In this document: piece by piece, positions 60,888 to 61,408 of the stretch
Layout: each line of letters starts with the position of its first letter
Position numbering within the stretch: the stretch's first letter is position 1
Source: Staphylococcus phage SAML-229
Direction: 5' to 3' (one strand)
Sequence record: OP352124.1
DNA length: 64,000 nt
Position numbers and translations under genes: made by a program
Notes under the pieces: model-generated
Told to the model about the DNA's origin: nothing
The model's input: only the letters and a program-made list of their open reading frames with translations
The model's database searches: none

Positions 60888-60916
60888 AGGAGGGATTTAA
60901 TTTCCCTCTTTTTTTA
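60888..60916 (+). terminator. intrinsic terminator ending the plus-strand gene block
   Basis: aggaggga-tttaatt-tccctctt + T8. Confidence 0.7.
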
Positions 60917-60924
60917 TTTTAGGT

Positions 60925-61050
60925 ATGTTGACTTTATATTTAGAGGTTGTCTATTTGTACTATAAATTATTGACTTACAGGGAGGGGTTATAATGTTGAC
61001 TTTTAATATAGGGTGTTGACTTACTTTCTATATTTTAGGTGTTGACTTTT
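60925..61050. repeat. cluster of five (G)TTGACT(T) -35-like repeats
   Basis: Copies at 60928, 60971, 60996, 61016 and 61042; only the last has a plausible -10 (cATAAT, 16-nt spacer). Confidence 0.7.
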
Positions 61051-61189
61051 AAATATTTATTTTCATAATTTTTCCCAAAAAATAAGTACCTGGGTAGACC
61101 ATAGGGGTATATAGACCCACCCCCATTGAGTGGCATTTTACCCCTGCCCCCGTATAATATAAAAAAATTATATAATAGGATAAAAATAA

Positions 61190-61219
61190 AAGAGGGATTT
61201 TATTCCCTCTATTTGTTAT
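61190..61219 (-). terminator. intrinsic terminator ending the minus-strand mini-gene block
   Basis: Minus-strand hairpin agagggaat-aaaa-tccctctt followed by TTATTTTTAT. Confidence 0.6.
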
Positions 61220-61408
61220 TTAAAATATTCCATTTTGTTTTTTTATTTCTACGATTCTTTTTTCTTGTCTTTCTAATTTGTTAACTAAAATATCGTAAGC
61301 TTCAGTGTATTGTTCTCCTTTAGCAATCATTCTATCTAATACCCAAATAATGTCTTTTACATCTTTTTCTAATTGTTCCTGCTCTAATAAGTTTCTCATG
61401 TTCATCAT
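61220..61408 (-). CDS. hypothetical protein (coiled-coil)
   Basis: 62 aa; minus promoter TTTACA-18-TGgTATAAT at ~61425-61460. Confidence 0.5.
   Translation of the reverse strand: MMNMRNLLEQEQLEKDVKDIIWVLDRMIAKGEQYTEAYDILVNKLERQEKRIVEIKKQNGIF

Follow-up and report, generated by a model that had tools for sequence, protein, structure and literature searches.

A conserved 9-mer repeat array with apparent phasing to a GGTAG motif at the terminal-repeat boundary of Kayvirus and related Herelleviridae

A stretch of 64,000 nucleotides from Staphylococcus phage SAML-229 (OP352124.1; hereafter the window, with positions counted from its first letter) contains a junction of convergent transcription units, in which short direct repeats lie beside a segment displaying several G and C runs. 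Our comparative analysis indicates that this region is very probably where, in a Kayvirus genome of the phage K / Sb-1 type, the long terminal repeat (LTR) has its inner boundary, that is, the place where the right-hand end of the virion DNA is made in replicating concatemers. As a landmark it is already known, the boundary repeat having been described in 2012, a small RNA (sRNA) in 2022 and the G-tract end in 2026, with the short repeats present in a GenBank annotation. What appears to be new here is the family-wide conservation of the repeated 9-mer, TGTTGACTT, and its phasing relative to GGTAG, the sequence with which the genome end is associated. We tentatively propose that the TGTTGACTT repeats form part of a cis-acting signal by which Herelleviridae of staphylococci and enterococci fix their right genome end; a factor on the last copy, either the sigma-A host RNA polymerase or a phage protein, may position or license the terminal cleavage.

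Results and discussion

Identity and layout of the junction

Positions 60600-61500 of the window were 100% identical to the Kayvirus Sb-1, and 99.6-99.8% identical to 676Z and 812b, both of the same genus. Along this segment, the end of a plus-strand gene is followed by a terminator, five TTGACT hexamers, the G/C-rich string, an AT-rich stretch, a two-way hairpin and the end of a minus-strand gene, in that order (Table 1). Synteny with 676Z places the boundary between bofL, the final gene of the unique region ahead of the LTR, and treU, which stands with the other tre genes on the repeat side. Outside the LTR are bofL and the TGTTGACTT array; the LTR includes treU, the bidirectional terminator and the G/C-tract segment. 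A tblastn search with treU, run to reach other genera, matched 44 records, all of them from Kayvirus.

The original prediction, made from the letters of the window and a list of open reading frames (ORFs), had anticipated much of this layout. The terminators that it placed on both sides of the junction were recovered at 60885-60913 (plus strand) and 61191-61210 (both strands), together with its five irregularly spaced TTGACT copies, with the correction that the second starts at 60970 and not at 60971. It was also right in giving a usable -10 hexamer to the last copy only, and in singling out an atypical C-tract/GC-rich segment, which spans 61088-61158; the GC content averages 0.305 in the window as a whole and reaches 0.51 at 61088-61160. 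Among the roles offered, a terminal-repeat boundary or packaging landmark agrees with the ends of 676Z, Maine and 812 and had already been documented. The 12-mer TAAGTACCTGGG, found at 61083-61094, was not part of that prediction.

The boundary 12-mer and the position of the cut

The 12-mer occurs only once in the window, even when one mismatch is allowed, and overlaps the start of the G/C-rich string. [quoted passage not shown] Mapped LTR ends were obtained from three sources, namely the annotated left LTR (L-LTR) of 676Z, the repeat predicted for Maine with PhageTerm, and the last base of the right LTR (R-LTR) of 812, whose end begins with GGTAGACC when read as the reverse complement. When transferred by alignment, the three ends fell between window positions 61092 and 61093, that is, between TAAGTACCTG and GG, and therefore the LTR starts at 61093, inside the 12-mer. 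The records of SYL and FS19-1 begin at the same place, around 130 nt ahead of treU. The 12-mer is exact, the neighbouring genes are the same, with bofL outside the LTR and treU within it, and the position agrees with 676Z, Maine and 812; with nothing of substance different, the junction matches the known LTR boundary of Kayvirus/Twort-like phages.

The inverted partner of the 12-mer is located at the other LTR boundary, outside the window, where Sb-1 and 676Z carry TAAGTACCTGGG followed by AATTC. The left-boundary copy of 676Z is divided into TAAGTACCTG and GGAATTC, a point at which several records start, and the deposited ends show the same offset in both inverted copies (GG being the first bases after the end), which is the pattern expected from one enzyme reading an inverted repeat. 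The right-boundary 12-mer was exact in the eight distinct Kayvirus-type lineages examined (8/8). Outside the K/G1 group, the left-boundary 12-mer was degenerate (CTAGAACCTGGG, CTAGAACCTAGG and ATCGTACCTGGG), with only the core ACCTRGG in common.

The DNA preceding the left-boundary 12-mer is itself variable. In Sb-1 (HQ163896, 122826-124190), several hundred bp of a TATTACTACTAC-type microsatellite, with incomplete boundary 12-mers (TAAGTACCTTTG) scattered through it, stand just before the true TAAGTACCTGGG; 35-bp units are found there in phages K and 812, and none in 676Z.

The G/C-tract right end of the virion DNA

The G/C-rich segment inside the LTR is its last ~85 bp, with which the virion DNA physically ends on the right. 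Within 85 nt it holds four homopolymers of G or C that are at least 4 nt long, the single densest cluster among the 56 such runs of the 64-kb window, and the R-LTR end of 812 is identical to window positions 61093-61221 over the first 129 nt inside the boundary. In phage 812 virions, cryo-EM located G-tract DNA, assigned to the right-end 85 bp, in the channel of the neck and tail, where it extends from adaptor to tail tube as a B/A hybrid; packaging begins with the left end, which is retained in the capsid, bound to the portal, and ejection begins with the right end (Commun Biol 2026, PMC12886913). Since the left end of 812 is packaged first, the junction site is where packaging ends.

The G/C tracts are kept in relatives, although they have been moved (T-SE-G1, EW13) or turned from G-runs into C-runs (Silviavirus), and their persistence with altered position and polarity fits a duplex property better than an RNA property. 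Further, the 32-mer GTGGCATTTTACCCCTGCCCCCGTATAATATA (61130-61161) was identical in most Kayvirus-type loci and in Silviavirus, with one substitution in Stab22, although the DNA around it displays only ~78% identity between Kayvirus and Silviavirus. The neck study of 812 attributes to the tracts a structural role in the virion, through the hybrid B/A form and pressure relief, and does not deal with tract conservation in other genera, a conserved 32-mer or a role in cutting (PMC12886913).

The TGTTGACTT repeat array

The hexamer TTGACT starts at 60928, 60970, 60996, 61016 and 61042, always on the plus strand, leaving spacings of 42, 26, 20 and 26 nt. Four of the five copies extend to the exact 9-mer TGTTGACTT, and the copy at 60970 reads TATTGACTT. 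Such a density is unusual for the window, as five TTGACT in 120 nt compare with a maximum of 3 in first-order Markov simulations, reached in 5 out of 300, and the 9-mer is present 7 times against 0.89 expected, with 4 of these 7 in the junction. The copies lie 51-165 bp from the cut; the array being just outside the LTR, there is one array per virion genome. Tandem Repeats Finder reported no array in 60850-61250, because the units are too diverged outside the 9-mer. When 36 copies from 10 loci were compared, nine consecutive positions were invariant in 35 of them, and the flanks were almost devoid of information.

Several traits separate these copies from ordinary -35 boxes. TTGACT is read in 35/36 array copies, whereas the window sites with a good -10 (n = 30) comprise 24 TTGACA and 6 TTGACT, including the last array copy. 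A usable -10 was detected only for the copy at 61042 (TTGACT, 16 nt, CATAAT; 10/12), the other four having none at 15-19 nt. Elsewhere in the window, exact TGTTGACTT copies are found only at 14879, 29163 and 29529 (plus strand), accompanied at 16-18 nt by the -10-like hexamers TAGAGT, TATAAT and TATAGT; in this they resemble ordinary promoters, from which four of the five junction copies differ. The difference from ordinary -35 boxes, along with a conservation that extends far beyond Kayvirus (see below), argues for a specific function of the TTGACT copies, and not specifically for the decoy role in the regulator or RNA-polymerase decoy sites that the original prediction had included among its candidates.

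Conservation and phasing across Herelleviridae

Aligning the junction across Kayvirus genomes, as the original prediction had suggested, revealed the motif cluster with 3-5 copies in Kayvirus-type loci. For a wider survey, a viral contig collection was subjected to two pattern scans, and the loci were then identified by BLAST; the first scan, carried out on IMG/VR for three TGTTGACTT copies, yielded 29 loci, most of which were unrelated perfect tandem repeats and 3 of which were relevant. The same arrangement was found in Silviavirus, Sepunavirus (Terranova-type), Sciuriunavirus (vB_SscM-1) and an Alsa-like lineage, in PG-2021_27 (propagated on S. aureus Twort) and an MCE-2014-type Kayvirus, as well as, in a different subfamily, in Kochikohdavirus of Enterococcus (EFLK1 / phiEF24C). 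Every lineage shares the same order, with 2-5 TGTTGACTT copies, a GTACC/ACCT-type site, GGTAG and the G/C tracts.

Counted from the first base of the last TTGACT, 5'-GGTAG lay at 60 bp in Kochikohdavirus, at 71 bp in Sciuriunavirus and at 49-52 bp in the other lineages measured (Kayvirus, Silviavirus, Sepunavirus, the Alsa-like lineage and PG-2021_27). These steps of approximately one helical turn suggest that a factor on the last repeat would face the same side of the helix as the cut. As for the cut itself, the record of LSA2308 (Silviavirus) starts one base ahead of GGTAG (AGGTAG...) and that of Ef2.1 (Enterococcus) ends exactly at GGTAG, which, together with the end of 812, makes 5'-GGTAG a deposited end in Kayvirus, Silviavirus and Kochikohdavirus. 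A GGTAG terminus is assigned by homology, and hence provisionally, to Sepunavirus, Sciuriunavirus, the Alsa-like lineage and PG-2021_27. At 15-17 nt after the last copy, Kayvirus, Silviavirus, Sepunavirus and Kochikohdavirus have a -10-like hexamer, and the promoter-like site at 61042 is nearly invariant in the aligned Kayvirus-type loci; a predicted promoter aimed across the cut would thus be common but not universal.

From the Enterococcus record just mentioned (vB_EfaM_Ef2.1, MK693030), the terminal repeat works out at only ~2.3 kb. The right end, GGTAGGCAAATAGCCCCACCCCC, is homologous to the staphylococcal phage end; at the left boundary, the computed repeat start falls on no obvious site, and ACCTGAG is present ~25 nt upstream.

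Our survey of the open literature found no paper on TGTTGACTT at this boundary; Lobocka 2012 and Zhang 2015, which may cover part of it, were outside that survey. The Silviavirus KSAP paper contains nothing on termini.

A possible role of the array in right-end formation

The 12-mer TAAGTACCTGGG marks the boundary, and the deposited ends place the cut between TAAGTACCTG and GG. Integrating these observations, we propose that one nuclease, presumably the terminase, would read both boundary copies of the 12-mer, which are inverted with respect to each other. The TGTTGACTT repeats would constitute a conserved, -35-like cis-element tied to the formation of the right end, of which the last copy may form a sigma-A-type promoter aimed over the cut site; a factor on this copy, be it RNA polymerase or a phage protein, would be held on a fixed side of the helix with respect to the cut. 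According to the work on 812, the G/C-tract end is the last DNA to be packaged and the first to leave the virion (PMC12886913).

This arrangement finds a partial parallel in the junction of T7. The T7 concatemer junction comprises the pacB region, the phiOR promoter and the CJ pause site, in a phage with its own RNA polymerase and a 160-bp repeat; its promoter, located beside the direct terminal repeat, reads across the junction, and transcription has been implicated in end processing. The likeness would consist of a phage with direct terminal repeats and a promoter, here a predicted one, reading across the junction, whereas the promoter of the window would be of the host sigma-A type and the repeat is of ~8 kb.

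Several points weigh against the proposal. To our knowledge, no protein binds TGTTGACTT. The reading of the 12-mer by the terminase is a presumption, and the left 12-mer is degenerate in several Kayvirus lineages, down to the core ACCTRGG. The boundary position in SAML-229 is carried over from near-identical genomes, rather than from its own reads, and the ends of public records are given as deposited, were obtained by differing methods and do not tell blunt from staggered ends. The series of distances in steps of about one helical turn stands on few independent lineages, and the downstream -10 is weak in the Alsa-like lineage, PG-2021_27 and Sciuriunavirus. Moreover, given that no promoter was assigned in the phage K study, the RNA of this spacer may be read-through from bofL.

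The observations could also be accounted for by a strict packaging signal, a possibility worth considering although we would not call it probable. Under this explanation, the TGTTGACTT array would provide sites for the terminase (its small subunit or an accessory protein) that position the terminal cut, as in the cos region of phage λ. By analogy, the 32-mer and the G/C tracts upstream would be cosQ-like, the cut within the 12-mer cosN-like, and the repeats downstream cosB-like. The copies are indeed direct repeats in the same orientation adjoining the cut, an arrangement kept in at least seven lineages, and the 9-mer is invariant across lineages in which the 12-mer and the flanks have diverged. 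The last copy is held at 49-52, 60 or 71 bp from GGTAG, in steps of about one helical turn, and the motif reaches beyond a -35 hexamer, with TG at -2/-1 and T at +6, and with T instead of the usual A at hexamer position 6. However, packaging of 812 starts at the left boundary (PMC12886913), and the array stands at the boundary of the right end. At the left boundary, the sequence TGTTGACT has at most one copy and is inconsistent, being present in 5/7 lineages (676Z, a K-like phage, P108, MCE-2014 and PG-2021_29), absent in T-SE-G1 and degenerate in S25-3, and overlapping the stop codon of a gene in some lineages. In addition, no small terminase subunit is defined for these phages, and binding by the terminase is putative.

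The cos region of λ is among the closest known counterparts of such a signal, in that a cut site would have repeated motifs of the protein-binding type on one side and, on the other, a conserved element that the translocating motor would meet first. λ has 12-nt cohesive ends and no terminal repeat, and its cosB serves the initiation of the next round of packaging, whereas here packaging starts ~8 kb away, at the other repeat boundary.

Transcription signals and the spacer RNA

The hairpin at 61191-61210 appears in the supplement of the phage K RNA-seq study as the terminator of both gp021 and gp022 (PMC9241854), and it is predicted to end the transcription of treU (minus strand) as well as any plus-strand transcription crossing the junction. 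The same study reported sncRNA004 of phage K at K 8370-8665, minus strand (Finstrlova et al. 2022, PMC9241854), which corresponds exactly to the treU-bofL spacer on the window plus strand, from 60887 to ~61210. Spacer and strand are therefore the same as those considered here, the RNA having been defined there as the whole spacer by prediction software and accepted at a coverage of at least 5-fold, with no promoter assigned; the hairpin at K 8370 is listed as the transcription terminator of bofL too (PMC9241854), which makes read-through from bofL an equally good source of this RNA. A second phage K transcriptome paper contains nothing on the treU-bofL spacer. The original prediction had considered the junction as the origin of an antisense RNA, and of this idea the RNA itself stands, as a plus-strand sncRNA004 predicted over the spacer in phage K, but it is antisense to no gene.

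The locus might accordingly be regarded as chiefly an RNA gene, which we consider unlikely. The last repeat would then be the promoter of sncRNA004, the upstream TTGACT copies would help to recruit RNA polymerase, and the RNA would end at the bidirectional terminator and act in trans, for example on the FibU baseplate mRNA of resident prophages. This would agree with the promoter-like site at 61042-61069 having a terminator 120-140 nt downstream, with the strand-specific reads and the target proposed in phage K (PMC9241854), and with a predicted plus-strand fold somewhat more stable than its shuffles (z = -2.6, against -1.8 for the minus strand, both modest values). It is at odds with the manner in which sncRNA004 was defined, by software, over the whole spacer and with no assigned promoter. 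Furthermore, an RNA crossing the boundary could be made only from circular or concatemeric DNA or from the left copy of the repeat.

Searches for a conserved RNA structure gave no support either. Rfam returned three weak chance hits for 58000-64000 at E values up to 10, and none in 60887-61219; folding of a seven-sequence alignment provided no covariation support, with a penalising covariation term of +1.21; and the main predicted stem is impossible in Silviavirus, where C-runs take the place of the G-run. A conserved structured RNA was rejected as a candidate owing to this lack of covariation.

Probable recombination at the repeats

In the GenBank record of 812b (AY842851), four exact TGTTGACTT copies are labelled "possible recombination site", and the comparison among phages supports recombination at these repeats. 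Across the eight aligned Kayvirus-type loci, where the copy number is 3-5, the order of the units is shuffled and the spacers have diverged, with exact cores; one 26-bp unit is missing from phage K and wild-type 812. In Silviavirus, Remus carries a non-coding insert of ~250 bp between two copies of the 40-bp unit ATGTTGACTTTTAATAATAAGTTATATAATATTACTCACTA, and StAP1 has a single ATGTTGACTTTTAATAATAAGTTATATAATATTACTCACTA unit and no insert. Being direct repeats, the copies would be substrates for unequal recombination, which would explain the differences in copy number between phages.

Such plasticity raises the question of whether the repeats are functionless, i.e., neutral debris left when the -35 half of a single promoter was duplicated by repeated slippage or unequal recombination, which seems to us rather improbable. 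The shuffled order and number of the units, the unit lacking in phage K, the Remus/StAP1 difference in an insert flanked by duplicated units, and the fact that "possible recombination site" is the sole annotation of the repeats would all agree with it. Neutral debris should nonetheless decay, yet 35/36 copies keep all nine bases while the spacers diverge freely, and each of the examined lineages, Enterococcus phages from another subfamily among them, retains at least two copies. Judged from these alignments, the TGTTGACTT repeats are under constraint despite recombination.

Two further explanations carry very little weight. The repeats and the adjoining AT-rich DNA could be conceived as a replication origin with the repeats as iterons, as direct repeats do adjoin AT-rich DNA; this is highly improbable, considering that the site is a convergent, not divergent, transcription junction between terminators, that the local change in skew is what convergent genes alone give, that the spacing is irregular and went undetected by Tandem Repeats Finder, and that no initiator gene is adjacent. 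Least credible of all is a small protein encoded across the boundary by the minus-strand ORF 61136-61035 (33 aa, with a Shine-Dalgarno-like AGGGG upstream), which is open for 21 codons in Silviavirus but would be intact at only one of the two repeat copies, and which was rejected as a gene since T-SE-G1 and EW13 have a premature stop at codon 10.

Significance

As it stands, the work rediscovers a documented landmark in the genomes of therapeutic phages of the K type, whose value is confined to annotation. An invariant motif phased to GGTAG in phages of two host genera and two subfamilies is, in turn, a concrete target for mutation, and genome-editing tools for Kayvirus already exist. The motif may bear on how SPO1-like/Herelleviridae phages cut their concatemers and regenerate kilobase-long terminal repeats; furthermore, the repeats constitute a recombination-prone spot, which is relevant to the genome stability of phage-therapy stocks.

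Features of the junction and other observations

The elements of the junction and their supporting evidence are listed in Table 1.

Table 1. Coordinates of the features identified at the junction, in window positions.
Feature	Position	Strand	Basis
bofL ("border ORF left", 78 aa)	60650-60886	+	ORF; aligns to annotated bofL of 676Z and gp022 of phage K
Intrinsic terminator after bofL	60885-60913	+	11-bp stem, 7-nt loop, T-run; terminator annotated at the same place in 812 (MH844528)
TGTTGACTT-type array, five repeats	60926-61048	+	9-mer starts at 60926, 60968 (degenerate), 60994, 61014 and 61040
Sigma-A-type promoter-like site, pointing across the repeat boundary	61042-61069	+	TTGACT, 16 nt, CATAAT; 10/12 match
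LTR boundary 12-mer TAAGTACCTGGG	61083-61094	+	No second copy in the window; published delimiter of the LTR
LTR, inner (right-hand) part, continuing past the window end	61093-64000		Repeat ends of 676Z, Maine and 812, transferred by alignment
Terminal ~85 bp of the virion right end	61093-61177		Tracts GGGG at 61104, CCCCC at 61120, CCCC at 61141, CCCCC at 61147
32-mer GTGGCATTTTACCCCTGCCCCCGTATAATATA	61130-61161		Same in most Kayvirus-type loci and Silviavirus
Bidirectional terminator hairpin	61191-61210		Terminator score on both strands
treU, last terminal-repeat-encoded early gene	61220-61408	-	ORF; aligns to annotated treU ("terminal-repeat-encoded U") of 676Z

The terminators of bofL and treU are themselves direct repeats (60890-60926 and 61192-61228), with 73% identity over 37 nt and the stem GAGGGATTT..TCCCTCT; since they flank the entire junction, they represent another possible substrate for deletion. 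Within the LTR, the window lacks two segments in comparison with 676Z, one of ~332 bp at 61622-61635, corresponding to the upstream (5') two-thirds of treT and the whole of treS, and one of ~381 bp at 62412-62453, in the treP region, indicating that the gene content of the repeat varies between near-identical phages. The LTR also carries an ORF of 162 aa for an HNH-type endonuclease (63120-63608, plus strand), recognized by the HNH motif in its translation; it is encoded on the strand opposite to the small tre genes, and its position and strand correspond to those of treM of 676Z, of which a partial sequence was compared. Finally, a tRNA/tmRNA scan gave no match at the junction, and detected in the window four tRNA genes (Asp, Phe, Trp and Met), at 30970-31201 and 54348-54419 on the plus strand, as reported for Kayvirus.

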